Assembly (NCBI GenBank): GCA_937922745.1 | Contig: CALAJO010000033.1 | Location: forward strand, 2,250 to 66,249 | DNA length: 64,000 nt | Origin: an uncultured cyanobacterium | GTDB taxonomy: Bacteria; Cyanobacteriota; Vampirovibrionia; Vampirovibrionales; JAGQHJ01 | Direction: 5' to 3' | In this document: positions 15,025 through 39,000 of the stretch, piece after piece | Layout: each line of letters opens with the position of its first letter | How positions within the stretch are numbered: position 1 is the first letter of the stretch | Notes under the pieces: generated by a model | Databases searched by the model: none | What the model was told of the DNA's origin: nothing | Seen by the model: only the letters and a program-made list of their open reading frames with translations | Program-made: the position numbers and the translations under genes

Positions 15025-15066
15025 CTATTTTAGAAATACGGTAGTATAAACCCAATAAAACTAACC

Positions 15067-16697: not shown

Positions 16698-16758
16698 CTG
16701 GTACTCTTGGATTAATGTAATAACTTCTATGTTAGTCGTTCAAAGAAATTCCAAAAGC

Positions 16759-16777: not shown

Positions 16778-16826
16778 ACTGGCACATCTTTAACACACAT
16801 GTTATGTTTTACGGAAAAGTATCAGA

Positions 16827-19728: not shown

Positions 19729-19841
19729 GAACTCTTTTAGCCTGCCTTAAAACCACTTTTCTCTTATAAGGGACCACTTCCCCCACTCTATCAAGGGTAT
19801 TACAAATTGGTCTCCAGGCCAAGAGGAACTAGAGTTCCAGC

Positions 19842-20588
19842 CTATGATGGCTGTAAGATTAATGGTTGTTTTTTCTTGAAATCATAGTCCTTTGCTCTAA
19901 GGATACGGGAAACTTGGGCATGGCAAAGGGCCTCACTCTTGCTGTAACCTGCCTTAACAAATGCCTGTAATACATTTTCCCATGTTGCCCCTTTATCCAG
20001 GATATCAGCAGCCTTCTTGGGACCAATGCCAGGACACCCGGAGTAGCCGTCGGAGGAGTCTCCCGTCAGTGTCTGGAAGAAATGCCAGTAATCGGCTTCT
20101 TCTTCAGAGATTGAGTAGACACCCAGTTTCGGTTTATTGGTGTTGTAGTGAAGGCCGGGGACGGTCTTGAGGTCCTTATCGATAGACACGATGACTTTCT
20201 CTCCCTTGATGATCTTCTCCGTGGTAGCCAAGATTCCCAGGACATCATCACCCTCCAGGCTAGGACGTTCGTAAGACTTGTATTGGGTTTCCAGATGCTC
20301 CCGAAGTTCTCTCAGAATGATGGGTTTCCTTACCTTGTCTCTCCCCGCCTTATAGGTAGGCAGGATTTTCTTACGGAAGTAGTTTCGGGTTCTGTCAGAC
20401 AGAGCAATGACCAACTGATCTGCTTTCAGGTCTTCCTTGAGGCCAGCCAGGAAGTTGTCCATCTTGGCTTTGGCTTCCTTGCCATCGGCACGCAGGGTCC
20501 AGAGATCATCGCCCCAATGGATTGGGGTTTCGGCTGCCGTGGCGAACTGATAGGCCACGACATCGCCATCAATCAGTAGAGTTCTCAT
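19842..20588 (-). CDS. 5'-3' exonuclease / flap endonuclease (T7 gp6 analogue)
   Basis: From MRTLLIDGDVVAY (RBS GGAGAAATAACA): SIDKDL, and the H3TH motif GDSSDGYSGCPGIGPKKA. Confidence 0.85.
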   Translation of the reverse strand: MRTLLIDGDVVAYQFATAAETPIHWGDDLWTLRADGKEAKAKMDNFLAGLKEDLKADQLVIALSDRTRNYFRKKILPTYKAGRDKVRKPIILRELREHLETQYKSYERPSLEGDDVLGILATTEKIIKGEKVIVSIDKDLKTVPGLHYNTNKPKLGVYSISEEEADYWHFFQTLTGDSSDGYSGCPGIGPKKAADILDKGATWENVLQAFVKAGYSKSEALCHAQVSRILRAKDYDFKKKQPLILQPS

Positions 20589-20590
20589 TG

Positions 20591-21130
20591 TTATTTCTCC
20601 AAAGCTTTTACCAACAGGTGGAATCCGCTCCAATCAAACACCCGATACCCTTGCCACTCTTTGTTGTAAGGGGAGTCAAAGCAAATGGCTGTTCCATCAG
20701 GATAGGCTTTTTGCCAAGCTTCCAAGTTGTGCAAGCCATCGTCTAGCAAGACATCCCCTTGAATCAGTTCCTTGCGTTCGGCAAAGATAACGCTACTGAG
20801 GGGGAAGCCGGGTAAGTGGCGTTCTATCCACTTGCGTTTGTCCTCATGGCCGTACTTGCAATGGGTCACAAAGACCACATCATGGCCTTCCTGGATAAGC
20901 GTTTTCAGGGTGGAAAGGGCTCCAGGTATCGGTTCCAGGTGAAGGAAGAAGCCGGGGTCTTTGAGGAATTCTTCTACCTGGGCCTGGGTGAGATGAGGGG
21001 TCATCTTATGGATGTACCAATCAGTGACCTCCTCAGGCTTCAGATGGGTTCCATAGTAGCGGTTGATGAGGGACAACCAGTAAGGAACGAGATCCGCTGT
21101 TACCCCATCCATATCAATCAGGAGACGCAT
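20591..21130 (-). CDS. HAD-family 5'(3')-deoxyribonucleotidase
   Basis: Motif I is LIDMDGV. The overall pattern (...HLEPIPGA...VFVTH...DDG...) is typical of phage/cellular dNMP nucleotidases. Confidence 0.75.
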   Translation of the reverse strand: MRLLIDMDGVTADLVPYWLSLINRYYGTHLKPEEVTDWYIHKMTPHLTQAQVEEFLKDPGFFLHLEPIPGALSTLKTLIQEGHDVVFVTHCKYGHEDKRKWIERHLPGFPLSSVIFAERKELIQGDVLLDDGLHNLEAWQKAYPDGTAICFDSPYNKEWQGYRVFDWSGFHLLVKALEK

Positions 21131-27564: not shown

Positions 27565-28180
27565 CCGAGGGCTCTTCAGTGGCTTCCGTGCCTGCTTGGG
27601 TATAGCCGGTTTCCACACCAAAGCCGAACTTGTCGGCACTTTGGCCCAGATATTCCACCAGCTCGATAATCTGAACGGCTTTTAACCGGAGGGTGACACC
27701 GGCTCCCACCAGATCGGTATGATACGGGGAGATGTCGGCACACACTTTGATTCGGCTACCACTGCCAATCCGAATATCTTTGGAAACAATGGGTGTTCCA
27801 GCGGCGTCAAAGAGCTTGGGTCTCAGTTCAATGGGTTCACCACCATTGCGAGGCGTGACTTTGGCTTTGAGCTTGAAGTTGAACTGAATGTCCACAGTCT
27901 CGTTGCCATCATCATCCGTCACCTCAAAATAGGGCGGCTTGGCCATTTGAATCTTCTTGGCCTTTTGTGGATTTTCTTTCTTAGCCTTCTCCAGGGAATC
28001 GGTCATAGCGGCATCAATGGCCTTCATCATCTCCTGGGCCTCGGTGGCGGATAACAACAACCCCACACGGTACTCACCATCCGAATCAAACTTGGTATCC
28101 GGGCGGGTGAGAAACGGATAGGACGCCGTACCAATCGGGGAAACGAGTTGAACGGCTTTTTCTTTAACTTTCGACGGCAT
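27545..28180 (-). CDS. ssDNA-binding protein (T7 gp2.5 analogue)
   Basis: It sits between RNAP and endonuclease I. It has an acidic C-terminal tail ending in Phe (EATEEPSDDEADF), as in gp2.5. The ATG at 28180 is preceded by AAAGGAGA. Confidence 0.7.
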   Translation of the reverse strand: MPSKVKEKAVQLVSPIGTASYPFLTRPDTKFDSDGEYRVGLLLSATEAQEMMKAIDAAMTDSLEKAKKENPQKAKKIQMAKPPYFEVTDDDGNETVDIQFNFKLKAKVTPRNGGEPIELRPKLFDAAGTPIVSKDIRIGSGSRIKVCADISPYHTDLVGAGVTLRLKAVQIIELVEYLGQSADKFGFGVETGYTQAGTEATEEPSDDEADF

Positions 28181-28196
28181 AATAACGGTCTCCTTT

Positions 28197-28220
28197 TCGT
28201 TCCTTAGTAGGGGAATATTC
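28197..28220 (-). promoter_or_regulatory. Phage RNAP promoter P1 (GAATATTCCCCTACTAAGGAACGA)
   Basis: One of four near-identical 24-mers. It is 17 nt upstream of the SSB start and resembles the T3 promoter AATTAACCCTCACTAAAGGGAGA. Confidence 0.6.
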
Positions 28221-28232
28221 AATGTTGTAATA

Positions 28233-28248
28233 AATTCAAAATTGAATT
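28233..28248. promoter_or_regulatory. Palindromic operator AATTCAA-AA-TTGAATT
   Basis: Perfect 7-bp inverted arms located 12 bp upstream of P1. It belongs to the TTCAAAATTGAA family found before the early genes. Confidence 0.4.
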
Positions 28249-28251
28249 AAT

Positions 28252-30732
28252 TTAAGCAAAGAAAAACGCACTCTGCTTGACGGCCTCCAGATCCAGTTGG
28301 CCTTTAGGCGGAATGGGCGGTACTTTGCCGGTGTGTTTCTCAGATAACAGGTCCAAGAGTTCCGCTCGAAACTTCTCCAGGACATCATCCTGGTACATGG
28401 TGACAAAGACATCCCGGATACACTGAGCGGAAATCTCGGTATCAGCGGCCAGGGTCCCGTAACTGTCATGAACCAGCGAAAAGCTTTCAATCCCTCGTTT
28501 CACCGCCTCGCAAATATAGAGATGCAAGGCGGCTGCATCCATAGAGTGAACAAAGTTAGGACTGATGCCATTGGCTTGCCTGCGGATATCAATCACATGA
28601 TTGCCTTCCTGAAGGGAAAGCTTGATGAGGCGTCCGCTCAACTGGGTATCGATTTGCCGTGACTTCAGCTCATGGTAGACCTGCTGAACCGGAAACCCGG
28701 ACGGTGTGGTCCAATTGATGGGGAGCCCTTCCTTGGCTGCCAATGAGGCCACTTTCCGAAGCCAGTCCATAGCGTTTCGGGCGGCCACAACAACTTCGCC
28801 AATGCTATCCCAGACAATGCCTGCCAGATATTCCGAGGCTTCAAAGATGCGATCCCGTTCCGGCAAGGCAAAGATATTCTCTTGGCCTTTGCTGATGCAC
28901 TCCCGAAGGTACTCTTCGATGTACTCCCGGCAGGCATAGCGGGTTCCACCATAGGGCAGAATCATCACAGGGCGCTTGGTGATATTGCGATTGACACCCA
29001 ATTGAATCCATTTTTTTGCTAATTCGGATTCAGGATCATGGGTTTCAACGGCCTGATGGAGCTTTTCCAGCACCACATCGGCCACCCGTTGGTAAATATC
29101 CTGAGGTTGCTCTGATGGAATCAGGTTGACGGCTTCCCCGCCAATATGATCCCGAAGCATGGCGGAAAAGTGTTGGAGGCCGTTGCAACTGCCATCCAGG
29201 GCAATGGGAAGATGGGAGACAAACCCGTATCCCTGTTTGAGAAAGCCTGCCCATTCAAAGCAGAAAGCCAGAAACTGCCAGGGCTTATCCGCCTCAGTCC
29301 ATTCCAGGTTAGACAGCGGATCGTCTGCCACCCGGCAGATGTCATCGTTCATGGCTTCAATGAACTGAACCCGCTCATCCAGACTGACTTTATCGTGACC
29401 ATACACGTTGGCTCCCTGAATGGCCAGCCAGTGGGCGGCTTTTTCGGTCTCAATGGGCTTGCCATGAGCAAAGGTCAGCAAGGCTTTGGCCAAATCGGTT
29501 CCCTGGGGATTGAGGAAATTGGGTATCGGGTAAACCCGGCCCCGGAAATCGAGCATGTGGGGAAAATAGATCTCCGGCTCGTCCTTGAATTTATCAGCCA
29601 GATAGAGAATTTTACTGAACATGAGCCGTTTTGAACGGTTGACGATGTTTTGCTCATAGACATAGGCGGCCTGACGCTTCCAATCTCTGAGTATGCTTTT
29701 CTGCTCTTCCGTCATCTCATCGATTTTCAGATCTTTTGGAAGCTGGCACGGAACAGGCATGCGGTCATCCCGGAATGGGAGATTTCCTACCTGGGTATCG
29801 CTGGCCCAAATTTCCTTGAGAATGGACAAGACATCGGTGTTTACTCTCCAGGCGGTTTGTTGAACCAGGTTTAAAGCCTGATACACAATGGGCATCGGGA
29901 TGTGTTTCAGCTCTTCCATATAAGTTCTGGAATACGTTTTGACGATGCGAGGTTTTCGTATCAACGAGCTGTAATACCCGCCCGATGTTGGGTTTGTCCA
30001 TTCTTTGGGCGGCACAATCATGGGATAAAACTGAGGCGACAATAATTCGTTATGGGCGTTGGCCTCACTAATCCAATCCATTGTTTTCTGGGTGGCCACC
30101 AGATAGTAAGGCGTATTATTTTTGCTTTCAGTGAGTTTGACGATTTCTACCAGTCCGGTGGACTCGATAAACAGATCAATGCATTTCATCCCGATATGAA
30201 GCTTGTCAACCAGTGGCCAAGGCTCCCAGTCGATGCCATCCTTGTTCATCGAATGAATGAGAACGGTTCGTTTGTAGCTATAGGATGATTTCGCCTGAAC
30301 CCGGTTATAGACACTCTGGTAAAATGCCCTGTTTTCCTTGGCAAAATAGCTGAACCGGAGTTCATCTTCCAGGTTATTGACGATATTGACCGCCACATGT
30401 TGCAGCTTGAGACGCTTGGTAATGGAGTTTAATACAGACTTGGCCGCAATAAAAGCGATGATATCCGACTCCAACAGGCTGAGATAAGTGGCTGCAACCT
30501 GGGGACGGCCCACTTTAACCACTTCCTGAGTTTGGATATAGTCCTCTATCGCTTTCGAGAAGGGATCAAAGGTTTCTTTGAGCAAACGAAGGCCAGTAGG
30601 TGTGGTCGTCTCCATATTGCTCTCGTTGGCCTTTTGCTGAATATTGCGATACCGGGTTATACTTGACTCCAGCATTTCCTCTTCAAGCTTCAATTGCCGG
30701 TCAAGTTTGGATTCAACAGTGTTTGTATTCAT
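28252..30732 (-). CDS. Single-subunit DNA-directed RNA polymerase (T7 gp1 analogue)
   Basis: 826 aa. Contains DGSCNGLQHFSAMLRD (motif A), TKRPVMILPYGGT (motif B), LVHDSYGT (motif C) and a C-terminal ...SAFFFA, comparable to the T7 ...FAFA end. Confidence 0.97.
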   Translation of the reverse strand: MNTNTVESKLDRQLKLEEEMLESSITRYRNIQQKANESNMETTTPTGLRLLKETFDPFSKAIEDYIQTQEVVKVGRPQVAATYLSLLESDIIAFIAAKSVLNSITKRLKLQHVAVNIVNNLEDELRFSYFAKENRAFYQSVYNRVQAKSSYSYKRTVLIHSMNKDGIDWEPWPLVDKLHIGMKCIDLFIESTGLVEIVKLTESKNNTPYYLVATQKTMDWISEANAHNELLSPQFYPMIVPPKEWTNPTSGGYYSSLIRKPRIVKTYSRTYMEELKHIPMPIVYQALNLVQQTAWRVNTDVLSILKEIWASDTQVGNLPFRDDRMPVPCQLPKDLKIDEMTEEQKSILRDWKRQAAYVYEQNIVNRSKRLMFSKILYLADKFKDEPEIYFPHMLDFRGRVYPIPNFLNPQGTDLAKALLTFAHGKPIETEKAAHWLAIQGANVYGHDKVSLDERVQFIEAMNDDICRVADDPLSNLEWTEADKPWQFLAFCFEWAGFLKQGYGFVSHLPIALDGSCNGLQHFSAMLRDHIGGEAVNLIPSEQPQDIYQRVADVVLEKLHQAVETHDPESELAKKWIQLGVNRNITKRPVMILPYGGTRYACREYIEEYLRECISKGQENIFALPERDRIFEASEYLAGIVWDSIGEVVVAARNAMDWLRKVASLAAKEGLPINWTTPSGFPVQQVYHELKSRQIDTQLSGRLIKLSLQEGNHVIDIRRQANGISPNFVHSMDAAALHLYICEAVKRGIESFSLVHDSYGTLAADTEISAQCIRDVFVTMYQDDVLEKFRAELLDLLSEKHTGKVPPIPPKGQLDLEAVKQSAFFFA

Positions 30733-30769
30733 GGCTCATACTCCTTTGGTTCACTAACGTGTGTTGCCC

Positions 30770-30793
30770 TCGTTCCTTAGTAGGGGGAAATTC
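30770..30793 (-). promoter_or_regulatory. Phage RNAP promoter P2 (GAATTTCCCCCTACTAAGGAACGA) upstream of the RNAP gene
   Basis: 22/24 identical to P1 and 38 nt upstream of the RNAP ATG. Confidence 0.6.
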
Positions 30794-30821
30794 AAAATTG
30801 AAATTGATTCAAAATTGAATT
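30789..30821. promoter_or_regulatory. Two tandem operators (AATTCAAAATTGAAATT and GATTCAAAATTGAATT) overlapping the upstream edge of P2
   Basis: Same TTCAAAATTGAA core as 28233-28248. The first copy shares its left arm with positions -17 to -13 of P2. Confidence 0.4.
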
Positions 30822-30921
30822 AAATTACCCAAAAAAAGAGCACCCAAGGGCTATATGCCCAAAGGAGATATCGTATAAACGTGTAAAAGCTTTAATTGAG
30901 AGGATTTACAGGCAGGTTATG

Positions 30922-31299
30922 CTATTTTTTCTTGCTTTTCTTGGCTTCAACCAGTTCTTTTTCCTCAAGAAGACTCAGTAACTGGTCTCTAACCTCTTCC
31001 CCCTTCTTGGTAAGGAATGCAATCTTGCGAACTCGGTTTTCCGGGTCTTCCTCGGTAGCCAATAAACCAAAGCCCTGTTCATAGCGATCCCGCTTGTAAA
31101 ATGCACGGCTTAGGGCAGACACATGACGGTGAACGGTGACTTGAGGCAAGTTCAAGCGCTCTCCAATCTGAGTCAACGGGATCCGCTCGTGATAACACAC
31201 AACGAAAAAGACGCCTGCCATTTCCAGGCTCATCTTGGGATAAATATCCCTGAGAGCGTCAATCACTCTCAACTGTTTGACAAATTCCTGTTCGAACAT
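30922..31299 (-). CDS. MarR-family winged-helix transcriptional regulator
   Basis: IPLTQIGERLNLPQVTVHRHVSAL (HTH) followed by a wing (...ATEEDPENRVRKIAFLTKKGEEV). The ATG at 31299 is preceded by GAGAAAGAG. Confidence 0.75.
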   Translation of the reverse strand: MFEQEFVKQLRVIDALRDIYPKMSLEMAGVFFVVCYHERIPLTQIGERLNLPQVTVHRHVSALSRAFYKRDRYEQGFGLLATEEDPENRVRKIAFLTKKGEEVRDQLLSLLEEKELVEAKKSKKK

Positions 31300-31313
31300 G
31301 GCGGCTCTTTCTC

Positions 31314-31344
31314 GCAAAATTGAAATTATTACAGAATTGAATCC
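31314..31344. promoter_or_regulatory. Two degenerate operator copies (GCAAAATTGAAATT, CAGAATTGAATCC) upstream of the MarR-like gene
   Basis: They carry the AAATTGAA half-site of the operator family and lie immediately upstream of the regulator start, so autoregulation is plausible. Confidence 0.3.
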
Positions 31345-31418
31345 ATTATATCAAAAAGGGGGTCGAGTGTATTATTCCCTCAGGGCAGGGGAGTTAATCC
31401 CCCCTGAATGAAGGAATG

Positions 31419-31631
31419 TTACACATCCCAACATTTGAGATACTCATAACGTGGTGTTGCCCTGGTGATTCCTGTTATGGTGAGGGCTTGAGGAACCATC
31501 TCTGTTGGGATTTCCCAAAAGCCACCCGTGCAATAGGTTTTCCAGGAGTAATACCCTTGCGGTTTTTCAGGCAACAGGGCAAAGAGTTTTTGTCTTGCCC
31601 TGTGAGATGCACAACGAATCAGTGTTTTCAT
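31419..31631 (-). CDS. Hypothetical protein (70 aa)
   Basis: ORF in line with the early operon. No motif recognised. Confidence 0.3.
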   Translation of the reverse strand: MKTLIRCASHRARQKLFALLPEKPQGYYSWKTYCTGGFWEIPTEMVPQALTITGITRATPRYEYLKCWDV

Positions 31632-31646
31632 ACCATGCCCTCCTGA

Positions 31647-32042
31647 TTAATACTCTTCCGGCAACAAAACAACGGTTTGAGCCATCGGATCATAGGCTCC
31701 TGAAGTCTCATTGATGGCCCAGAATTTCAAGCCCTCTGTGAGGTCCGTATAGTCGATGTCCTGTTGAATCAGGGTTTTATAGTGGTGGTTACCTTCCTGG
31801 TCGTATTCTTCCTGTTGAATGGTAAAGACAGCGCTTTGATCCGGCTTTACCCCAACCGTGACAATCAGGAAGTAATCAACGCCTTTACGCTTGGCTAGTG
31901 TGGGAACATAAGAGGCGATGGTATCCATAACCCAAAAGCATTTGTTTCGCTCACAGTAGGCCATTACCCCACCCGTAGTGATCCAATGCTTTGCAAAGGG
32001 GCTGAAACGGTAGTAAACATCCTGTTGGTATTGTGTATTCAT
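31647..32042 (-). CDS. Hypothetical protein, possibly the DUF6876 type that accompanies ArdC on plasmids
   Basis: The ATG at 32042 is preceded by AAAGGAG. The pattern YYRFSP...ITTGGVMAYCERNKCFWVMDTIASY recalls the ArdC-adjacent family. The assignment is from memory only. Confidence 0.5.
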   Translation of the reverse strand: MNTQYQQDVYYRFSPFAKHWITTGGVMAYCERNKCFWVMDTIASYVPTLAKRKGVDYFLIVTVGVKPDQSAVFTIQQEEYDQEGNHHYKTLIQQDIDYTDLTEGLKFWAINETSGAYDPMAQTVVLLPEEY

Positions 32043-32080
32043 GGCAATGCTCCTTTTCACGTTGAGGGAAGAGACAGCCC

Positions 32081-32959
32081 TTAGGCTGCCTCCTCCATTT
32101 CTTCTGACACTTCGGCTTTGATGATGAACTGATGGGCCTTGCTGGCCTCGGTGGCTGCCTTAAAGATGGCCTTTTTGTCGTTCTTTAGCACTCTGAGCCA
32201 TGAGGCAATGTAAGCGTCATGCTGTACTTGCCCTTCAAGCCCCAGATCGGCAAACAGGAAAGCCGATCCCATTTCGGCTATGAGTTCCTCAAAGGCATAG
32301 GCTTCATCCCCAAAGCGTCCCTTAAAGTCTCTGTTTAACCGGGAATGGTGGCCTGTCCAGTGGGTTAGCTCATGAAACAGGGTGCAATAGTAATCCCCTG
32401 AGTTCTTGAACCGTTCCTTTTTGGGCATGCTGATGAAATCAAAGCTTGGAGAGTAACAAGCCCTGATGCCTACCGATTCAAAGCGTAGATCGGCTTTACT
32501 GGCCTGGATAATCTCCTCAATGCGTTGAATGTCTTCCCATGTTTGCTCACGCTTTACGGGTGGTGTGAGGTCAATCCCTTCACATTGATCCAGGTTGAAC
32601 ACGTTATACCACTTGAGAAACGGGATCCGCTTGTGCTTGCCGTCTTCTTCCTTATCCAGGAAGTTCCAGTAAACAACGGTCGTGGCTTTTTCACCACGAA
32701 TCACATTGCCTCCCATCTGTTCGGCTTGTTTGTAGGAAACCCAGGCATTGGCTTGATAGCCTTTTTCTTGTTGTGTAGCCCAGAGAATGGGAATATTGAT
32801 GCCACGATAGGAAAAGCCGGTTTTGAGGTTGTAAGGGATACCCTCAAACCCTCCATAACTGCTTTGATCCCAAGGGCATTTCCAGGGTCTTACGCCTTGT
32901 TCCAGGGATTGAATGATCTTGTCGGTGATCTCCTGGTAGAGGTCTCGTTTTTGGGTCAT
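32081..32959 (-). CDS. ArdC-like antirestriction protein (N-terminal ssDNA-binding domain plus C-terminal zincin metalloprotease)
   Basis: DLYQEITDKIIQSLEQG..PW...YRGINIPILW is DUF1738/ArdC-N-like, and HELTHWTGH is a zincin HExxH. The ATG at 32959 is preceded by AAAGGAG. Confidence 0.85.
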   Translation of the reverse strand: MTQKRDLYQEITDKIIQSLEQGVRPWKCPWDQSSYGGFEGIPYNLKTGFSYRGINIPILWATQQEKGYQANAWVSYKQAEQMGGNVIRGEKATTVVYWNFLDKEEDGKHKRIPFLKWYNVFNLDQCEGIDLTPPVKREQTWEDIQRIEEIIQASKADLRFESVGIRACYSPSFDFISMPKKERFKNSGDYYCTLFHELTHWTGHHSRLNRDFKGRFGDEAYAFEELIAEMGSAFLFADLGLEGQVQHDAYIASWLRVLKNDKKAIFKAATEASKAHQFIIKAEVSEEMEEAA

Positions 32960-32983
32960 GGTGTTTGCTCCTTTCATTTCATT

Positions 32984-33047
32984 GACTCAAAATTGAATGA
33001 AGTAACAGAATAATTGAATCAATTTTGAAATTAATTCAATATTGCAT
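32984..33047. promoter_or_regulatory. Cluster of 3-4 operator copies upstream of the ArdC gene (GACTCAAAATTGAATG; GAATCAATTTTGAAAT, inverted; AATTCAATATTGCAT)
   Basis: Same core as the other operators. It is followed upstream by two TTGACA/TTGACT boxes (33055-33080) that could be host-type early promoters. Confidence 0.35.
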
Positions 33048-33480
33048 GAATGTAGTCAAATAAAAATTTTGTCAACCCCTCAATTTTTTAAATTTATTGT
33101 TTGATTAAGTCAGAAGGTGCATAAACACCGCATATTGAACCCATGCAAAACATCACTTCACGATTCTTTAATTTCTCATAGGCAACAAAAGGGGAAGCCA
33201 TGGAACCCTGTCTTTGCTCTAAAAACAGGGCTCCAAGCATTGGAATTTTCAAATACAAGATCTCCATAATCACGCATACGACCTCATAACATTTTGAAAT
33301 TGCACCGCTTATATCGGCAATATTCCACAAAACTTTAATTTTTAAACACTTAAATAAAAGACTATGATAGAGTTTCAGAGATATAAGGATAACTATAGAT
33401 GTCTAAAACAGGCTAGAATAAAAGAAATGGGGCTTGCGTTTGATCAGATGGTCCTCAAAGAAGCCCATGAATACAGGACA

Positions 33481-33502
33481 AAGTGAGTAGAAACTGAGTA
33501 GT
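33481..33502 (+). repeat. Tandem 11-bp repeat AAGTGAGTAGA-AACTGAGTAGT (site B)
   Basis: Same unit, period and orientation as sites A and E, but located in the central control region rather than near att. Confidence 0.45.
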
Positions 33503-33834
33503 TTGTTATTCTATTCATCACCTGTAGAGCCTGAAAAGCCTTGTAATTCCTGAGTTTTCAATTTTAGACATCATCCCTTGTAAGGGTACTGTTTGCGATG
33601 GTGGCCAGTGTTGGGAGTCGATGGGGTAGAGGGGGGAAGCCGGTCAAAACGCTATCGATATAGGCTTTCACAAATTTTGACCAAATAATTGGGTCAATAA
33701 AAAGAAGGAAGGCAGTGAACGCCGTTAGGTGGACACTGCCTTTGAGTAGAGAGGCATGAGTGTGAAAGGAGCATGGTTAGGCTAATTATCAGATCAACTC
33801 TTTAATTAATATCTATATCTCTGTGTTTTTATCT

Positions 33835-33858
33835 CCCCTCCATAGTAGGGGAAAATTC
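33835..33858 (-). promoter_or_regulatory. Phage RNAP promoter P3 (GAATTTTCCCCTACTATGGAGGGG), leftward
   Basis: Member of the 24-mer family. It points into an AT-rich tract and the early module. Confidence 0.55.
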
Positions 33859-33872
33859 GGCGAGCGGGTTTT

Positions 33873-33896
33873 TAATTTCCCCCTACTATCGAGGGA
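33873..33896 (+). promoter_or_regulatory. Phage RNAP promoter P4 (TAATTTCCCCCTACTATCGAGGGA), rightward, in front of the structural module
   Basis: Inverted copy of P3 located 14 bp away. It ends 8 nt before the ATG at 33905. Confidence 0.55.
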
Positions 33897-33904
33897 AAAG
33901 AACT

Positions 33905-34093
33905 ATGCACGATGAATCATTTCCGTTTATACCCAAAGTGTTGCTCGATGAACTGAATGAACGCTACCCGGAACGATCTCCTGAATTGGAGTGGTCGGAC
34001 CGGGAAATCTGGCTTCGTGCCGGTGAACGTCGGGTCATTCGCTTTCTCAACGAGATGTTTAAACGACAGAACGAAAACATTCTGGAGAATTAA
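33905..34093 (+). CDS. Hypothetical protein (62 aa), first gene of the late module
   Basis: ATG directly downstream of P4. No motif recognised. Confidence 0.45.
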   Translation: MHDESFPFIPKVLLDELNERYPERSPELEWSDREIWLRAGERRVIRFLNEMFKRQNENILEN

Positions 34094-34096
34094 TTG

Positions 34097-34384
34097 ATGT
34101 GTTTATCAAAACCAAGCCCACCCAAGATTATTCAAGTCCCAGCGCCTAGCCGCTCTTCAGGAGGTGGGTCAGGTAGCGGTTCCAGCGCCAGTTCGGTCGC
34201 TTCACAAGTTCCACCTCCGCCACCGCCTCCAGAACCAACCCCGGAAGCACCGGTATTGAATGATGAGGAACGTCGAAGAAAATCAGATACCTCTATCCAG
34301 AGTGCTCAACGAAGTGGAACGAGAGCCTTTCGAATTGATTTACTGATTCCCGGCCCTGGGTCTGGACTCAATATTCCCTATTAA
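34097..34384 (+). CDS. Low-complexity Gly/Ser/Pro-rich small protein (hypothetical virion or assembly protein)
   Basis: MCLSKPSPPK..., then GGGSGSGSS and PPPPPPPEPTPEAP tracts. Confidence 0.4.
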   Translation: MCLSKPSPPKIIQVPAPSRSSGGGSGSGSSASSVASQVPPPPPPPEPTPEAPVLNDEERRRKSDTSIQSAQRSGTRAFRIDLLIPGPGSGLNIPY

Positions 34385-34395
34385 GGTGAGCCCCA

Positions 34396-35952
34396 ATGGA
34401 CAACCATATCGGTACGGCTGAAGCCCGATACCGGGAATTGGAGCCGAAACGGCTGGTTTATCTGGAGCGTTCCAGAGAAGTTGCCAAGTTTACCATTCCC
34501 AGCCTGATGCCTCCCAATGGACACAATTCCACAACCAAACTGGAAACACCTTATCAAGGCGTGGGAGCCCGTGGTGTCAATAACTTGGCATCAAAGTTGC
34601 TTCTTGCGTTACTGCCGCCTAACAGCCCATTCTTCCGGCTCAAGATAGAGGACTATATTTTAGACGACCTGGAAGTGACCAATCCCGGCTTAAAGACGGA
34701 ATTGGAGACGGCGCTTTCCCGGATTGAAAACGCCGTGATGACAGAGATTGAAACGTCATCGGATCGGGTGGCTGTCTTTGAAGTTCTCAAACACCTGTTG
34801 GTTGCCGGGAATGTCTTGATGGATATGTCGCATGAGGAGGGTATGCGAGTCTTTCATCTGGACCGCTATGTCGTCCAGCGAGACCCGATGGGGAACATCC
34901 TTGAAATCATTATTCACGAAACTGTTGCCCCGGTGGCCCTTCCCAAAGCAGTTCGAAAGCTGGTTGGTGAAAAGCTAGAAGGGACAGAGAAAACCGTCAA
35001 CCTCTTCACCATGATCAAACGTAATGATAACCACTGGAAGGTTTTTCAAGAAGTAAAAGGATTAGTCATTCCTGATACGGTTGGCACGTACCCCTTAGAG
35101 CGTTCACCATTCATTCCCTTGCGTGGCAACCGGATTGATGGGGAAGACTATGGCCGGGGCTATGTTGAAGAATATCTGGGGGATCTGAAATCCCTTGAAG
35201 GGCTCTCCAGAGCCATTGTCGAAGGTTCGGCAGCGGCTGCCAAGGTGCTGTTTCTCGTTAATCCCAATGGGACGACCAGAGCTAAAACATTGGCTGAATC
35301 TCCCAATGGGGCGATTCGGGAAGGCAATGCCGAAGATGTGACAGTTTTACAGGTCGAGAAGTTTAACGACTTCCGAATTGCGTATGAACAGATCAACAAA
35401 ATTGAAGAACGTCTGAGCTTTGCATTCCTGCTGAATTCCTCAATCCAACGTAATGCAGAACGAGTGACTGCCGAAGAAGTCCGCTTTATGGCCCGTGAAT
35501 TGGAAGATGCCCTCGGTGGACTCTATTCCATCCTGGCTCAGGAATTCCAGTTACCGTATGTCAGACGCAAAATCCACCAGATGGAAAAGGGGAGAAAGCT
35601 CCCCTCATTGCCGAAGAATACAATCAAACCAATGATCATCACTGGCCTGGAGGCACTGGGAAGAGGACACGATTTAAACAAACTCGATATCTTCATTGGT
35701 GGCTTGGCTCAGACCTTGGGACCTGAAATCCTGGCGCAATATTTAAATCTCGAAGATTACATTGCCCGCCGGGCCACCGCTATTGGAATAGATACCAAGG
35801 GCCTCATCAAGACCAAAGAAGAAATTGAGGCTGCCCAGATGGCATCCCAGCAACAAAGCATGATCAGTCAATTTGGCCCGGAAGTCATTCGGCAGGCCGG
35901 AGGCTTAATGCAGAAAGGAATACAAAATGGCCAAGTCCCGCAAACAAGTTGA
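34396..35952 (+). CDS. Head-tail connector (portal) protein, T7 gp8 analogue
   Basis: 518 aa, positioned before the scaffold and capsid genes. The N-terminal ...RYRELEPKRLVYLERSREVAKFTIPSL...P is typical of podoviral gp8-type portals. Confidence 0.9.
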   Translation: MDNHIGTAEARYRELEPKRLVYLERSREVAKFTIPSLMPPNGHNSTTKLETPYQGVGARGVNNLASKLLLALLPPNSPFFRLKIEDYILDDLEVTNPGLKTELETALSRIENAVMTEIETSSDRVAVFEVLKHLLVAGNVLMDMSHEEGMRVFHLDRYVVQRDPMGNILEIIIHETVAPVALPKAVRKLVGEKLEGTEKTVNLFTMIKRNDNHWKVFQEVKGLVIPDTVGTYPLERSPFIPLRGNRIDGEDYGRGYVEEYLGDLKSLEGLSRAIVEGSAAAAKVLFLVNPNGTTRAKTLAESPNGAIREGNAEDVTVLQVEKFNDFRIAYEQINKIEERLSFAFLLNSSIQRNAERVTAEEVRFMARELEDALGGLYSILAQEFQLPYVRRKIHQMEKGRKLPSLPKNTIKPMIITGLEALGRGHDLNKLDIFIGGLAQTLGPEILAQYLNLEDYIARRATAIGIDTKGLIKTKEEIEAAQMASQQQSMISQFGPEVIRQAGGLMQKGIQNGQVPQTS

Positions 35953-36169
35953 AGATCCCTCAGAAGTTGAGCGCCTGAAAGCTCAATTGGAAGTTGAGAC
36001 ACAGGCCCGTATGGATGCGGAACGTCATGCACAACAGGTTGAAAGCCAGACGGATTTATCCCGGCTTCAATCCGTGGCCTCTGAAGCCAATGCCGTGGCC
36101 AAACTATCCGCTAATCGTCAGCCCAAAATCAGCCTGATGTCTCACGGAATTACAAGAATCGATTTCTAA
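35927..36169 (+). CDS. Hypothetical coiled-coil protein (80 aa)
   Basis: ATG preceded by AAAGGAA, overlapping the portal 3' end by 26 nt. Confidence 0.35.
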   Translation: MAKSRKQVEDPSEVERLKAQLEVETQARMDAERHAQQVESQTDLSRLQSVASEANAVAKLSANRQPKISLMSHGITRIDF

Positions 36170-36183
36170 ACAAGGAGAGTCCC

Positions 36184-36918
36184 ATGGTAGACCGTATTGA
36201 AATCAAGTCAGAACCGACAGGACCGGATGTACCGGTTGAAAATCAACCAGTGGATGGTCAAAATTCCACCCCTGAAGTACAAGATCCTAACCGCCCGGAA
36301 TGGCTCCCGGAGAAGTTTAACAGCCCTGAAGACTTGGCGAAAGCCTATGGTGAATTGGAAAAGAAACTGGGCGATAATGGCCAGCAACCTAACCAGGAGG
36401 CTGTTAATCAGGTTGTTGAAGATGCCGGTTTGAAAATGACCGATTTAACGACCGAATATGAACAGAGTGGCAGTCTTTCGGAAGACAGCTATGCCAAGCT
36501 GGAGAAGTTCGGCATTCCCCGTGAATACGTGGATGGTTACATCCGAGGACAGGAAGCTCTTTCAGAAAAGTACCAATCCGATATTTTCAACATGACGGAT
36601 GGCCGGGATGGCTATACCAATATGATTCAATGGGCTGCCCAGAACCTCAGAGCAGATGAAGTCCTGGCATACAACACCAGTGTCAACAGTGGTGATATCG
36701 AACAAGCCAAGTTGGCCGTCAAAGGTCTGTTTGCCCGCTTTTCTGAAAATGAAGGCCATGAGCCTCGCTTGGTAACTGGGACTTCTGGTGCCTACAGTAA
36801 TTCAGTTTTCCGTTCCACAGCAGAACTAACCCAAGCTATGGCAGATCCAAAATACAAAACGGATCCAGCCTACCGTCAGGATGTTATTAACAAGCTTTCT
36901 CGTTCAAACATTTTATAG
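36184..36918 (+). CDS. Capsid assembly scaffolding protein (T7 gp9 analogue)
   Basis: Acidic 244-aa protein between portal and major capsid. RBS is AAGGAGAG. Confidence 0.65.
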   Translation: MVDRIEIKSEPTGPDVPVENQPVDGQNSTPEVQDPNRPEWLPEKFNSPEDLAKAYGELEKKLGDNGQQPNQEAVNQVVEDAGLKMTDLTTEYEQSGSLSEDSYAKLEKFGIPREYVDGYIRGQEALSEKYQSDIFNMTDGRDGYTNMIQWAAQNLRADEVLAYNTSVNSGDIEQAKLAVKGLFARFSENEGHEPRLVTGTSGAYSNSVFRSTAELTQAMADPKYKTDPAYRQDVINKLSRSNIL

Positions 36919-37066
36919 CGCAACCATTAGCGCCCCTTTTTAGGGGGCTGATGCGCTACACACCCAACACATGGAAACCTGGCCGGGTGCGCCCGACAAC
37001 CTGTGTGGACGGTGTTTCTCGGTGATGTGGCCAACGTTACTCAAGAATTAACGGAGAAACTTGGCT

Positions 37067-38017
37067 ATGTCGAATGCAACCCCATCACGTCTTGGGGCGA
37101 TTAACGATACAACAGGTTCTTACGCCCAGGACAACGCTCTATTTCTCAAGGTCTATGCCGGGGAAGTTATGACGGCCTTCAAAGAAACCAACGTGATGGA
37201 AGACAAGCATATTATGCGAGTCATCCAACACGGGAAGTCCGCTCAATTCCCTGCAACATGGAAGGCCGATGCCGCTTACCACACGCCCGGTAACGAACTG
37301 AACGGTTCACAGAAAATCAAACATGCGGAAAGAATCATCAACATTGATGATCTTCTGGTGTCTGACACCTTCATCGCCAACATCGATGAGGCAAAGAATC
37401 ACTATGACGTTCGTTCCATCTACTCGACGGAACAAGGTCGAGCACTCGCCCGGAAGTTTGACAAACAACTGCTTCAGGTGGGTGTCCTTGCGGCTCGTGC
37501 TTCTGCAACGATTACGGGTGGTTTTGGTGGAACCAAACTGGTCAACGCTCAATTTGATATTGATGCGGAGTCCTTGGTTGCCGGTATCTTCAACGCTGCC
37601 CAGGTCATGGATGAAAAGGACATCCCGGAAGAAGACCGCTTTTGCTTCTTGAAACCGAAACACTACTACATGCTCGCTCAACTGACCAAAATCATGAACA
37701 AGGATTGGGGTGGTATGGGCGTCTATGCGGAAGGTAAGGTTATCAAAGTCGCAAACGTCACCATCGTTAAAACCAATAACCTGCCTAACTCCAACATTTC
37801 TGCCGTATCAGGTGAACAAAACACCTATAACGGTGACTTTACCAATACCGTGGCTCTGGTCATGCACCGATCCGCTATTGGTACAGTTAAACTGTTGGAT
37901 TTGGCAGTAGAGTCCGAGTACGAAATCTGGCGTCAAGGCACCCTCATGGTTGCAAAGTATGCCGTTGGACACGGCATCTTACGTCCTGAGTGTGCTGTTG
38001 AGCTGGCGAAAGCATAA
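37067..38017 (+). CDS. Major capsid protein (T7 gp10 analogue)
   Basis: The ATG at 37067 sits 10 nt after GGAG. LFLKVYAGEVMTAF...VIQHGKSAQFP matches the conserved N-terminal block of T7-like capsids. Confidence 0.9.
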   Translation: MSNATPSRLGAINDTTGSYAQDNALFLKVYAGEVMTAFKETNVMEDKHIMRVIQHGKSAQFPATWKADAAYHTPGNELNGSQKIKHAERIINIDDLLVSDTFIANIDEAKNHYDVRSIYSTEQGRALARKFDKQLLQVGVLAARASATITGGFGGTKLVNAQFDIDAESLVAGIFNAAQVMDEKDIPEEDRFCFLKPKHYYMLAQLTKIMNKDWGGMGVYAEGKVIKVANVTIVKTNNLPNSNISAVSGEQNTYNGDFTNTVALVMHRSAIGTVKLLDLAVESEYEIWRQGTLMVAKYAVGHGILRPECAVELAKA

Positions 38018-38031
38018 GGGAGGAACCGTAT

Positions 38032-38349
38032 ATGGCCATTAACCTTTTATCCGGTCAGACCTCAAACGGTTCCGGCAGTGCTGTCACACTCAACGCCAAA
38101 GAAGGCGGAAACAAAATCGGATTTAGCGCCTTCGGTACGTTCGGCAGTGGCACCATCACCATCGAACTGGCCTTGGATGGCACGAACTATACCGCTGTCA
38201 CCACCTTTACAGCCGCAGCTTACAAAATGGTTGAAATCGTGGCGGAAGCAGGGTCTAAGATTCGTGCAACCTTGTCTGGTGCAACCAGCCCGAACGTTAC
38301 AGTTCAGATGTCTGGTGCTTTTACTGGCATTACTCGAACTGACGCATAA
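38032..38349 (+). CDS. Small beta-rich protein downstream of the capsid gene (hypothetical, possibly capsid-associated)
   Basis: Own RBS AGGGAGGAACCGTAT and its own ATG. 105 aa rich in Gly/Thr/Ser/Ala. Confidence 0.5.
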   Translation: MAINLLSGQTSNGSGSAVTLNAKEGGNKIGFSAFGTFGSGTITIELALDGTNYTAVTTFTAAAYKMVEIVAEAGSKIRATLSGATSPNVTVQMSGAFTGITRTDA

Positions 38350-38359
38350 CACAAAACAC

Positions 38360-38400
38360 AGAGAGTCACTGGCTTTTGGCTGGTGGCTCTCTTGTTTTTA
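38360..38400 (+). terminator. Strong intrinsic terminator after the capsid block (Tphi-like position)
   Basis: AGAGAGTCACTGGC-TTTTG-GCTGGTGGCTCTCT followed by TGTTTTTATTT. Confidence 0.65.
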
Positions 38401-38414
38401 TTTGAGGATTTGAA

Positions 38415-38993
38415 ATGTCATCGACACCGCCGTTACTTACGATGCTGGAAGCTGTCAACATTATGCTTTCCGTGATCGGGGAAGCCCCAGTCAATACGTT
38501 AGAAGGGGCAGCGACCAACGATGTCATTCAGGCCACCTCTATCCTGAACGAAATCTCCCGTGAAGTGCAGTCGATGGGCTGGCATTTCAATACAGAGCGG
38601 GAGTATCCGCTGGTTCCTGATGTGAACCAGGAAATTATCCTGGCTTCCAATATGGTTCGGGTGGATGCGGATGCTTACCCGGAATTTGACGTGGTGCAAC
38701 GGGGATCCAAGCTATATGACAAGAAAAGTCACTCGTTCAAGTTCGATAGGACTCTGAAAGCGGAAATTATTTTCCTTCTGGGCTTCGAAGAAATTCCCCA
38801 GATTGCCCGGCAATATATCACCATTCGGGCAGCCCGGATTTTTCAGGACCGGATCGTCGGTTCTGAAGTGATTCACGGCTTCGGTGAAGACGATGAGAGA
38901 AAAGCCTATGCCGATTTGAAAGAAGCCGAAGGGGATACCGGGGACCCAACGATTTTTGATCACTATGACGCTGCAAGGCCCTTGATTAGGTAG
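38415..38993 (+). CDS. Tail tubular protein A (T7 gp11 analogue)
   Basis: LTMLEAVNIMLSVIGEAPVNTLEG...ILNEISREVQSMGWHFNTE is the conserved gp11 N-terminus. Confidence 0.85.
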   Translation: MSSTPPLLTMLEAVNIMLSVIGEAPVNTLEGAATNDVIQATSILNEISREVQSMGWHFNTEREYPLVPDVNQEIILASNMVRVDADAYPEFDVVQRGSKLYDKKSHSFKFDRTLKAEIIFLLGFEEIPQIARQYITIRAARIFQDRIVGSEVIHGFGEDDERKAYADLKEAEGDTGDPTIFDHYDAARPLIR

Positions 38994-39000
38994 GTTTGCC

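Follow-up and report, generated by a model that had tools for sequence, protein, structure and literature searches.

The window analysed here, a stretch of 64,000 nucleotides, carries an integrated, intact T7-like prophage, in agreement with the T7-like phage proposed in the earlier note; att repeats flank it in tRNA-Val, and its depth in the source metagenome is about the same as that of the host flank (about 1:1). The phage genome is laid out in two divergent arms, with the integrases at 10.4-12.4 kb, at the prophage end and more than 18 kb from a gene for a MarR-like regulator. This gene is co-directional with the RNA polymerase (RNAP) gene and with the early operon, whose first large gene, ardC-like, lies downstream of P(E) and O(E). 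The genes, promoters and putative operators of the region are as follows, operators being given without strand.

28201-28219, minus strand: P1, phage-RNAP-type promoter before the SSB/DNA-metabolism operon
28216-28248: putative operator pair O(P1), a perfect 7-2-7 palindrome (28233-28248) plus a degenerate site (core 28218-28229)
28252-30732, minus strand: single-subunit (T7-type) RNAP gene (Pfam RNA_pol 5e-115; phrog_414 1.6e-273)
30774-30792, minus strand: P2 (AATTTCCCCCTACTAAGGA), phage-RNAP-type promoter preceding the RNAP gene
30789-30821: putative operator pair O(P2), two near-perfect 16-mers (30789-30804 and 30806-30821)
30831-30865, minus strand: weak hairpin with a U-run, terminator-like, separating O(P2) from the regulator gene
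30922-31299, minus strand: MarR-like winged-helix regulator gene, candidate repressor (125 aa; phrog_9665 'transcriptional regulator', E 1.1e-17)
31313-31341: putative operator pair O(reg), weak cores 31313-31324 and 31330-31341, 17 bp apart
31325-31354, minus strand: P(reg), the regulator gene's sigma70-type promoter, from a promoter scan
31419-31631: small early phage ORF of 70 aa, conserved in relatives
32081-32977, minus strand: ardC-like anti-restriction gene (Pfam ArdcN and MPTase-PolyVal; phrog_7245)
32986-33046: putative operators O(E), a pair with cores 33018-33029 and 33035-33046, 17 bp apart, and a third core at 32986-32997
33049-33075, minus strand: P(E), candidate host-RNAP early promoter (-35 TTGACA 33075-33070, -10-like TACATT 33054-33049, 15-bp spacer)
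33094-33330: small Cys-rich ORF, conserved in relatives
33839-33892: back-to-back phage promoters P3 (33839-33857, minus strand) and P4 (33874-33892, plus strand)

The palindromes form a strongly enriched family, as had been claimed. With the 2-bp centre left free and one mismatch allowed, a pattern scan for TTCAA-NN-TTGAA gave 7 matches inside the 495 bp of the four intergenic control regions (core starts 28218, 28235, 30791, 30808, 32986, 33018 and 33035), against 0.18 expected from dinucleotide shuffles of the same AT-rich segments, and none of 2000 shuffles reached 7. The remaining 63.5 kb of the window hold 5 such matches, and 21 kb of host flank only one. The exact core TTCAAAATTGAA starts at 28235, 30791 and 30808; at no more than one mismatch, this 12-mer has 7 matches in the whole window versus 1.08 expected. 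Within pairs, the sites, which are AT-rich, are spaced by exactly 17 bp at all four control regions, and both the dyad symmetry and this fixed pairing are kept although the flanks differ. The 43-nt two-site module also came up five times in an independent repeat search (family D1), which found the P1 and P2 modules to be 84% identical over 68 nt (family D3). Mismatches to the consensus number 0 and 0 at P2, 0 and 1 at P1, 1, 1 and 1 at P(E), and 2 and 2 at the regulator's own promoter, which suggests a predicted affinity hierarchy of P2 > P1 > P(E) > regulator's own promoter.

We examined how the sites are placed relative to the promoters. The degenerate phage-promoter 19-mer has exactly four copies without mismatch in the window (P1-P4), all intergenic and directed at genes; we take the P2 sequence to resemble the T3/T7 promoter core, and the phage promoter consensus varies among related phages. 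The tandem copies reported before the RNAP gene were borne out, with cores at 30791 and 30808, directly upstream of P2 and overlapping it. In the related locus L004, this operator-promoter stretch is the same up to the TACTAA that immediately precedes the predicted start, even with only 77% identity between the two RNAPs. At P1, the perfect palindrome described before is present but is not the sole site: the 17-bp pairing seen at all four places gives it a partner, a degenerate promoter-proximal site that reaches the upstream edge of P1.

At P1 and P2 the putative operators reach the promoter from its upstream side, and at P(E) and P(reg) they follow the -10. P(reg) is the best promoter-like match of the consensus scan of 27900-34100 (10/12 with TG), and can be read either as an extended -10 TGATATAAT at 31353-31345 or as TTGATA-18-AATAAT. 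Just downstream of it sits O(reg), whose two sites, with 2 mismatches each, are the degenerate copies previously noticed upstream of the regulator gene; the position is also occupied in L001, L003, L004, L007 and L013, and in L006, L007 and L013 the regulators are preceded by a TGnTATAAT-type element with an operator directly after it. P(E) stays a candidate because the same scan did not call it, and GGGGTTGACA or a close variant is found at its position in all nine longer related loci. The first O(E) operator begins 2 nt past its -10, and O(E) as a whole lies between P(E) and the ardC start codon. Of the three to four copies claimed there, we find three; the pair is kept in L004 and L001, and the third site is not conserved in L004.

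The earlier note placed palindromes in front of every early transcription unit, which overstates the case. No operator site accompanies the small ORF's sigma70-like promoter, nor P3 and P4, the structural-arm promoters at the junction of the divergent arms; the equivalent junction carries its own palindrome in L005, L006, L007, L010 and L011. Half-sites proposed at 33242-33303 fall inside the conserved small ORF, and 33094-33904 contains no match at one mismatch or fewer, nothing above chance. Folding of the hairpin between the regulator gene and O(P2) is weak in the window (z -0.6) and in L004 (z -0.1), whereas L001, the only other relative folded, has a strong long hairpin plus U-run at the same place (z -4.8); a hairpin plus T-run was recognised by eye at the equivalent position in L005-L007 and L010-L013.

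The regulator falls below the Pfam MarR gathering threshold and gives only sub-threshold HTH matches there. Its homolog profile, however, matches MarR-family PDB chains (2eth at 2.7e-9), its AlphaFold2 model has a pLDDT of 91.3, and nearly all of the best 50 Foldseek PDB matches listed are MarR-family regulators; by profile, model and Foldseek alike, the predicted fold is MarR-like. The wing motif D-x-R...LT-x-x-G is present. Classical MarR proteins are longer, and the model of this one shows just one long C-terminal helix. By tblastn, it is 31-36% identical to the MarR-like regulators of HTVC109P, HTVC019P, RHEph01 and LUZ100 (E 6e-10 to 1e-4). As the note had held, no other DNA-binding regulator is recognisable in the early arm; nor was another repressor-like gene found in the prophage.

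Nine related prophage loci with the same gene order, mostly from Vampirovibrionia/Melainabacteria MAGs where labelled, were subjected together with the window to unbiased palindrome enumeration. Across these relatives, the palindrome sequence shifts with the regulator subfamily while the positions stay put. TTCAA-N2-TTGAA was recovered for five of six subfamily-1 regulators (window, L004, L007r1, L013r1 and, by direct pattern scan, L001) and was read by eye in L003, a subfamily-1 fragment of 891 bp. Subfamily-2 regulators go with 3-bp-centre palindromes (TCAG..CTGA, TCAC..GTGA, TCAT..ATGA, GTAAC..GTTAC) that keep the relative positions and hardly occur in coding DNA, and phages with two paralogous regulators have two operator classes with divided targets. 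A palindrome that changes with its regulator at fixed positions is better explained by a repressor and its cognate operator than by host-factor sites. The comparison indicates that the palindromes are probably cognate operators of the phage's own MarR-type regulator, and the earlier assignment of the sites to this protein fits both their position and the co-variation. No simple one-to-one code links recognition-helix residues to operator bases among the relatives compared: L010 and L006r2 have near-identical recognition helices and different palindrome arms.

We therefore favour, as fairly probable, a switch in which the inverted repeats are operators of the MarR-type repressor encoded at 30922-31299 and hold the RNAP loop off in lysogeny; binding, repressive sign and lysogeny role are all predictions from sequence. 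Repressor dimers would occupy the tandem sites 17 bp apart at the four control regions. At P(E), sites 2 nt past the -10 would block entry of host RNA polymerase into the ardC early operon, and at P(reg) the two weak sites would mediate negative autoregulation, so that an independent transcription unit would keep the repressor low and steady. The promoter-proximal site at P2 and P1 would act by abutting or overlapping the -17 AT-rich edge of the phage-polymerase promoters. The main repression target would be the RNAP gene: a phage promoter in front of it makes RNAP expression self-amplifying, and since the strongest predicted operator pair lies there, repressor occupancy would keep the loop off. 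Bound repressor would thus mean lysogeny and immunity, and upon its loss read-through transcripts would ignite the RNAP loop and lytic growth. Direct occlusion of phage promoters would not be universal, because in L001 a gap of ~30 bp separates the RNAP gene's operator pair from the phage promoter downstream of it, and in L007 the pair before the SSB operon is ~35 bp away.

The regulator may instead bind these sites for temporal control or superinfection exclusion in lytic growth, shutting off the host-type early promoter and damping RNAP synthesis after the early phase, while another factor silences the prophage. We regard this as unlikely, if worth keeping in mind. Because its gene lies inside the early arm, co-directional with ardC and the RNAP gene, the regulator would also be made early in lytic infection, and P3 and P4 are free of operators; moreover, LUZ100, whose regulator is homologous, has not yielded stable lysogens (PMC10134795), and a cyanophage homolog works during lytic infection (PMC9692554). 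Yet an intact prophage integrated at 1:1 host depth means that some repressor must exist, and no other candidates were found. The regulator also has its own promoter with weak, putatively autoregulatory sites and hairpin/terminator elements on either side, as for a maintenance gene, and the strongest sites lie at the self-amplifying RNAP promoter.

It is improbable that some other protein binds the palindromes, be it a host nucleoid or global factor or the product of the 70-aa or the Cys-rich ORF, with the MarR-like protein acting elsewhere, for example on host genes. The sites are AT-rich, the two conserved small ORFs have no assigned function, and a related cyanophage MarR, that of P-SSP7, acts on a host promoter, activating a host gene rather than repressing it (PMC9692554). 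Against this, the motif is essentially limited to the four phage control regions, with a single match in the 21 kb of host flank; the motif switches with the regulator subfamily, and two-regulator phages have two motif classes; and the 70-aa ORF is absent from L004 despite identical operators. In T7, the origin is found just past gene 1, where phage promoters adjoin AT-rich DNA. It is nevertheless highly improbable that the repeats are cis elements (UP-like AT tracts, a replication origin or a recombination-carried duplicated promoter module): the T7-like primary origin placement downstream of gene 1 would suit this, and the 84% identity of the P1 and P2 modules makes part of the repetition a duplicated promoter cassette, but the inverted repeat is found as well at P(E) and P(reg), which have no phage promoter in common, dyads and pairing survive differing flanks, and relatives change the sequence in step with the regulator.

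The repressor-operator switch is not the undescribed type that had been supposed. It is already proposed in PMC10134795 that a MarR protein represses the RNAP gene of temperate T7-like phages (Boeckman 2022 as cited in Putzeys 2023), acting during lysogeny via sites flanking the RNAP promoter; LUZ100 gp10 and the regulators of HTVC019P-type pelagiphages, Rhizobium phage RHEph01 (gp008) and Agrobacterium phage Pasto, all of them T7-like phages that encode an integrase, are the proposed lysis/lysogeny regulators. The window's regulator is homologous to those of LUZ100, HTVC019P-type phages and RHEph01. In LUZ100-type phages, too, the regulator precedes the RNAP gene within the early region, and a phage-specific promoter before that gene (PMC10134795) gives positive feedback and has repeated sites beside it. 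We found CTATCCAC four times in LUZ100, at host promoters P1 and P2, both mapped, and on the flanks of terminator T4, which lies upstream of phi1; this placement is, as far as sequence can tell, the same regulon logic. In contrast to these phages, the window's regulator is neither adjacent to nor co-transcribed with an integrase, the genome is split into two divergent arms where theirs follow the collinear T7 order, each of four promoters has its putative operators as clear dyads paired at 17 bp, a second paralogous regulator with an operator class of its own occurs in relatives, and the hosts are probably Vampirovibrionia/Melainabacteria rather than Proteobacteria.

With classical MarR/SlyA/MepR repressors, the system shares the winged-helix fold, the wing motif and the predicted 12-16 bp palindromic operators overlapping promoters, tandem sites and autoregulation; the 12-bp geometry matches the SlyA site TTAGCAAGCTAA quoted in PMC9692554. 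It differs in its 125-aa protein with a single modelled C-terminal helix, sub-threshold in Pfam MarR, and in that a viral single-subunit RNAP circuit would be controlled. Lambda CI/Cro is alike in outline, with several graded operators, negative autoregulation and repressed early lytic promoters (here predicted), but the window's phage has no XRE-type HTH, S24 autocleavage domain, divergent PR/PRM pair or Cro-like second repressor, and on its lytic side a self-transcribing RNA polymerase takes the place of an antiterminator cascade. A DNA-bound dimeric repressor beside a single-subunit-RNAP promoter is known to block that promoter in engineered T7-lac, where the operator lies downstream of +1 and not, as here, at the upstream -17 edge. 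The present system is natural, each phage lineage having its own combination of polymerase, promoter and repressor-operator, and these differing operator-regulator pairs are the likely basis of immunity specificity. The type of switch is known but still hypothetical, and the window offers a well-resolved case of it: the idea has already been published for T7-like temperate phages, and what the window adds is that the putative operator sites themselves can be read.

The MarR-like regulator is encoded by an integrated T7-like prophage of ~42.5 kb (~10316-52812). Its attL (10266-10315) and attR (52763-52812) are direct repeats of 50 nt, 92% identical, that correspond to the 3' half of a tRNA-Val(TAC) gene at 52768-52843 on the minus strand; an additional copy, similar to the 5' half of tRNA-Val, is found at 53016-53066. 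In the source metagenome (run X1, 2000-21000), the prophage contig has a depth of ~8.8 versus 8.8-10.3 for the host-flank contigs, and this equal depth fits a quiescent prophage. The assembly is interrupted at the tRNA repeat (10271-10301), with short high-depth contigs stacked there. A search for RNA-seq or metatranscriptome runs containing the sequence returned none. The elements used throughout the analysis are as follows.

Main features of the prophage
10411-11532: tyrosine integrase with an N-terminal HTH_17 domain, left end, adjoining attL
11516-12406, minus strand: second tyrosine integrase, left end, adjoining attL
33.0 to 19.8 kb, minus strand: early and DNA-metabolism arm
28252-30732, minus strand: RNAP gene, early arm
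30922-31299, minus strand: regulator gene (125 aa), early arm
32081-32977, minus strand: ardC, early arm
33905-52198, plus strand: structural arm, from portal to terminase
28201-28219, minus strand: 19-mer copy P1
30774-30792, minus strand: 19-mer copy P2, before the RNAP gene
33839-33857, minus strand: 19-mer copy P3, back to back with P4
33874-33892, plus strand: 19-mer copy P4

The minus arm encodes, in order, ardC, DUF6876, a 70-aa ORF, the regulator, RNAP, a gp2.5-like SSB, endonuclease I, amidase, primase-helicase, MT-A70, DNAP and exonuclease. As in Autographiviridae, a single-subunit RNAP is accompanied by T7-type replication and virion modules, the latter comprising portal, scaffold, capsid, tail tube, nozzle, a gp14-like protein, tail fibre and terminase. 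The collinear, unidirectional gene order of that group was not found; the two arms (19842-52198) diverge from a ~0.9-kb non-coding region, and this split is common to all related loci whose upstream flank reaches the structural genes (L001, L004-L007, L010 and L012). Behind the integrases, low-GC cargo (12481-19728, 38-45% GC) carries a CsoR-like metal-sensing repressor (12481-12864), several ORFs without a family match, and an ABC-3C-type defence system with CTD10 and DUF2326 proteins (16827-19728). Additionally, a 25-nt motif, AAGTGAGTAG-N-AAMTGAGTAGT, occurs at the 5' end inside the integrase gene (10443-10467), in the central non-coding region (33478-33502) and immediately beyond attR (52877-52901). 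Similar sequences are present in the central non-coding region of relatives, and the motif may serve as arm-type sites for the recombinase or as some other cis element.

We characterized the regulator by structure prediction and homology searches. The AlphaFold2 monomer model (pLDDT 91.3) shows a winged helix-turn-helix fold with a beta-hairpin wing, in which an N-terminal helix (2-19) precedes the recognition helix (53-63) and the wing strands (66-96), and a single long C-terminal helix (98-123) follows. In the MarR family, helices at the two termini build the homodimer. Among the top 50 Foldseek matches listed from the PDB, nearly all are MarR-family proteins (AdcR, MexR, MarR, MepR, PcaV), with a probability of 1.00 and TM scores of 0.55-0.70. 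Consistent with this, a profile of regulator homologs matched the crystal structures 2eth (2.7e-9), SlyA (2.8e-6) and also MepR, and the homolog alignment displays the MarR wing signature. The Pfam scan of the regulator gave only sub-threshold matches, to HTH_IclR, Sigma70_r4 and HTH_24, with no MarR model listed and the MarR/MarR_2 gathering score not reached; "MarR-like" is therefore a label at the level of fold and remote homology. PHROGs places the protein in a "transcriptional regulator" family (1e-17), and an exhaustive HMMER search returned 303 relatives at 50% clustering. In tblastn searches against phage genomes, it matched HTVC109P (36%, 6e-10), HTVC019P (32%, 1e-4), RHEph01 (30%, 4e-4), LUZ100 (32.5%, 8e-5) and the "MarR family" regulator of vB_RleA_TRX32-1, identities overall being ~30-36%; Agrobacterium phage Pasto was absent from these matches. 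Because of its homology to the regulators of the first four phages, the protein belongs to a family that the literature ties to temperate T7-like phages. Lambda-type CI features, namely an XRE-type HTH and an S24 peptidase or other RecA-cleavable domain, were found in none of the ORFs scanned.

The 19-mer AATWTYCCCCTACTAWSGA has exactly four mismatch-free copies, P1 to P4, all intergenic and all pointing at genes. Its core, CCCTACTAAGG, resembles the T3/T7 promoter core, and relatives carry other versions that are consistent within each phage. We take the four copies to be predicted promoters of the phage RNAP. Since the RNAP gene lies behind P2, RNAP expression would self-amplify. A degenerate copy of the core, CCGCTACTATGGA, at 21049-21068 on the minus strand near the start of an NT5C-like gene, may be a weak fifth phage promoter.

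Before the regulator gene, the best sigma70-like match of the region, the putative host-type promoter P(reg), reads TTGATA-18-AATAAT with a TG, or alternatively an extended -10, TGATATAAT; two weak operators follow it directly. Upstream of ardC, a conserved GGGGTTGACA is followed after 15 bp by TACATT and, 2 nt further, by the first operator. This early promoter, P(E), is only a candidate, because the consensus scan made no call there. We also looked for a sigma70 promoter overlapping P2 and rejected it for want of a convincing -35/-10 pair, the TAnnnT-like hexamers before the operators being weak evidence in such AT-rich DNA.

The palindromes proposed as operators in the earlier note are real. 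Across the whole window, the 12-mer TTCAAAATTGAA has exact copies at 28235, 30791 and 30808, and its seven matches with at most one mismatch compare with 1.08 expected. We then restricted the count to the four intergenic regions before SSB, RNAP, the regulator and ardC (495 bp, 34% GC) and left the 2-bp centre free. TTCAA-NN-TTGAA matched three, seven and nine times at 0, 1 and 2 mismatches, against 0.01, 0.18 and 1.4 expected from dinucleotide shuffles, and none of 2000 such shuffles of the same segments reached the observed counts. Each of the four places has a pair of sites spaced by exactly 17 bp, and a repeat finder independently recovered the two-site module as a 43-nt family with five copies.

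Predicted operator sites
28218/28235: pair at P1, before the SSB operon
30791/30808: pair at P2, before the RNAP gene
31313/31330: pair before the regulator gene
33018/33035: pair before ardC
32986: third ardC-side site

The coordinates of the earlier note were right overall and needed correction in detail: the degenerate proximal site at P1 had been missed, and of the three to four copies claimed before ardC we count three, a fourth not rising above chance. The further half-sites that it placed at 33242-33303 are indistinguishable from chance and fall inside a conserved small ORF. P3 and P4 have no operator in this phage. A perfect TTCAA-NN-TTGAA also lies within the coding sequence of the nozzle gene (39940-39951), as does a match to the same pattern in the relative L001 (1813-1824); conserved codons may have produced these matches by chance, or an operator may lie within the gene.

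A comparative series was assembled by protein-identity look-ups, which yielded nine loci, the 891-bp fragment L003, and L002, a short near-duplicate of L001. Single-protein searches, with the regulator against viral contigs and with RNAP against one representative genome per species, confirmed no relatives. Where labelled, the sources are mostly Vampirovibrionales or Melainabacteria MAGs. In all loci the early arm runs from ardC through DUF6876 and one or two regulator homologs to RNAP, which is followed by SSB except in L011, in which cargo genes take that place. The regulators fall into two subfamilies (r1 and r2 denote the two paralogs of a locus). Subfamily 1, with mutual identities of 56-98%, comprises those of the window, L001, L003, L004, L007r1 and L013r1 and is always paired with TTCAA-NN-TTGAA. 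Subfamily 2 is paired with palindromes whose centre is 3 bp long and whose arms are specific to the lineage.

Palindromes paired with subfamily-2 regulators
TCAG-NTT-CTGA: L006r2, L007r2, L011
TCAC-TNA-GTGA: L010, L012
TCAT-NTT-ATGA: L013r2
GTAAC-TAA-GTKAC: L005
TAAC-WWW-GTTA: L006r1

In an unbiased enumeration of all 5-N(2/3)-5 palindromes in the control regions of each locus, the regulator-matched motifs ranked top or joint top except in L001 and L011, whose motifs were located by direct pattern scan and sequence reading. Counts in control regions versus elsewhere were 8 versus 0 in L010, 5 versus 1 in L005 and 6 versus 0 in L004, and a cross-scan found each motif essentially limited to its own loci. 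The site positions are kept across relatives while the sequence changes.

Recurrent operator positions across relatives
Downstream of the early ardC promoter
At the -10 of the regulator's promoter
Past the terminator, before the phage promoter of the RNAP gene
Before the next operon
Between back-to-back structural promoters, in subfamily-2 phages

Such kept positions, combined with a sequence change that matches the regulator, are as predicted for a cognate repressor-operator pair. MarR-family proteins bind palindromes or pseudopalindromes lying over promoters, often the regulator's own among them; the dyads at matching positions and the co-variation of regulator and operator agree with such predicted binding here. 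By contrast, the rival explanation that these are generic AT-rich host-factor sites, or that AT-richness by itself produces them, is hard to reconcile with the comparative pattern, and we rejected host-factor sites since the motif is found only in control regions of the phage and, among relatives, varies together with the regulator. In L004, the P2 operator-plus-promoter block equals that of the window up to the TACTAA before the predicted start, while the RNAPs are only 77% identical. A simple code from recognition helix to base was considered and rejected, as similar helices (L010, L006r2) go with different arms.

Three relatives carry two paralogs (L006 5894-6749; L007 5928-6753; L013 4074-4442 and 6384-6746), each having a separate operator class and a separate TGnTATAAT-type promoter; the two paralogs of L013 are separated by an inserted transporter gene. 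In two-paralog phages the regulators would divide the targets: the sites of the subfamily-1 protein are found at the host-type early promoter and at the promoter of its own gene, those of the subfamily-2 protein at the promoter of its own gene and at the phage promoters.

Other elements are also conserved. The central region (33094-33904, read on the minus strand; L001 7313-8248, L004 4051-5004 and equivalents) contains non-coding blocks conserved across relatives, among them a GGCAGTG...CACTGCC hairpin with a T-run and a "AATTTGTGAAAGSCTATATCG" block, then a sigma70-like "GTTTAAAAATTAAAG...GGAATAATGCCGATA" promoter and the small ORF 33094-33330, which has a terminal Cys-rich FCxGSxCGG motif; no operator is present in this region. 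After the 70-aa gene, a very stable minus-strand hairpin at 31374-31417 (-25 kcal/mol, z -4.65, without a U-run) precedes a conserved (C/A)TGAGGGAAT. Equivalent hairpins in L001 (9780-9835), L003 (260-310) and L006 (5770-5820) keep the structure with varying stem sequence, and similar CCCTCCC...GGGAGGG hairpins lie between early genes of L005-L007. Possible roles are RNase III-like processing or termination of the phage RNAP. Cargo differs among relatives at variable spots (L006 12139-14503; L011 9553-13875 and 4357-5430; L013 2368-3438; L004 325-1358). It includes an arsenic-resistance-like cluster in L006 and L011 (ArsR-type HTH_5, LMWPc, glyoxalase, SBF), an early-arm gene for the DNA polymerase III beta clamp in L011 and L013, and a ThsB-TIR gene in the structural arm of L004.

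T7-type polymerases contact an AT-rich -17 to -13 element of their promoters, as established for T7 RNAP. At P2 and P1, the core of the proximal operator extends to about -15 and its flanking sequence to -13; occlusion of the polymerase is thus plausible there, because the proximal site overlaps this element. Repressor dimers would occupy the tandem sites, and at P(E) and P(reg), where the sites overlap the start region, classical repression and autoregulation would result. By consensus match the sites rank P2, then P1, then P(E), then the regulator's own promoter, a hierarchy that would guard the positive-feedback loop and make the repressor self-limiting. In L001 and at one L007 site, operators lie 30-35 bp from the phage promoter and may act as a roadblock or in some other mode. 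The first RNAP molecules would come from host polymerase reading through the terminator between the regulator and RNAP genes, which hairpin folding shows to be weak. The same origin has been proposed for LUZ100, in which a phage promoter before its own RNAP gene was found experimentally (PMC10134795).

The earlier note regarded this arrangement as an undescribed type of switch. That claim fails because the concept is already published: Putzeys et al. 2023 (PMC10134795) cite Boeckman 2022 for the hypothesis that a MarR-like regulator represses the RNAP gene and holds lysogeny in T7-like temperate phages. The literature searched contained no paper with binding experiments on phage operators or with defined operators. 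Like the LUZ100/HTVC019P/RHEph01/Pasto type, the prophage has its regulator gene in the early region, ending 190 bp upstream of the RNAP start, and an RNAP gene with a phage promoter, P2 (30774-30792), and two candidate operators (30789-30821). In LUZ100, HTVC109P and RHEph01 an integrase follows the regulator, whereas here the integrases lie at attL and no MarR-int-RNAP cassette is formed. Further differences from the known T7-like MarR systems are the divergent arms, four regulated promoters with fixed 17-bp pairs (as predicted), relatives with paralogous two-repressor versions, and a new host lineage. Novelty is therefore limited to an unusually clear new example of an already hypothesized system. 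In LUZ100 (L008) itself, CTATCCAC occurs four times versus 0.12 expected, at 376, 577, 3939 and 3995. The copies lie inside the host promoters P1 and P2 of that phage, which were mapped by experiment, and on both sides of terminator T4, the latter just upstream of phi1, the phage promoter of the RNAP gene. They are candidate sites for the MarR-like gp10, suggesting that this culturable phage follows the same regulon logic.

Taken together, the in silico pairing makes it highly probable that the palindromes are operators of the MarR-like regulator, and a role in lysogeny seems likely as well, if less firmly so. A broader reading, which we consider evenly balanced, is that this Vampirovibrionia-type T7-like prophage clade uses a bistable two-component switch. 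An autocatalytic single-subunit RNAP with its own phage promoter would be set against a minimal MarR-type repressor, whose dimers would occupy in tandem both the host-type early promoter and the -17 edge of the phage promoter. Within the family, orthogonal repressor-operator pairs (immunity types) would have arisen by diversification; in some phages, duplication would have produced one repressor for the host-polymerase promoters and another for those of the phage polymerase.

For the silence of temperate T7-like phages, the MarR hypothesis already exists. The window and its relatives give it exact sites, their spacing and their relation to host-type and phage-type promoters, and the comparative series, in which regulator variants are matched by at least five classes of operator, turns it into simple experiments. 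The sets of polymerase and promoter, repressor and operator, possibly orthogonal, would be useful to synthetic biology, and T7-like lysogeny is extended to an uncultured sister lineage of Cyanobacteria. If true, the bistable-switch reading would be the first sequence-resolved account of lysogeny in T7-like temperate phages and would provide a library of naturally matched parts, polymerases with their promoters and repressors with their operators.
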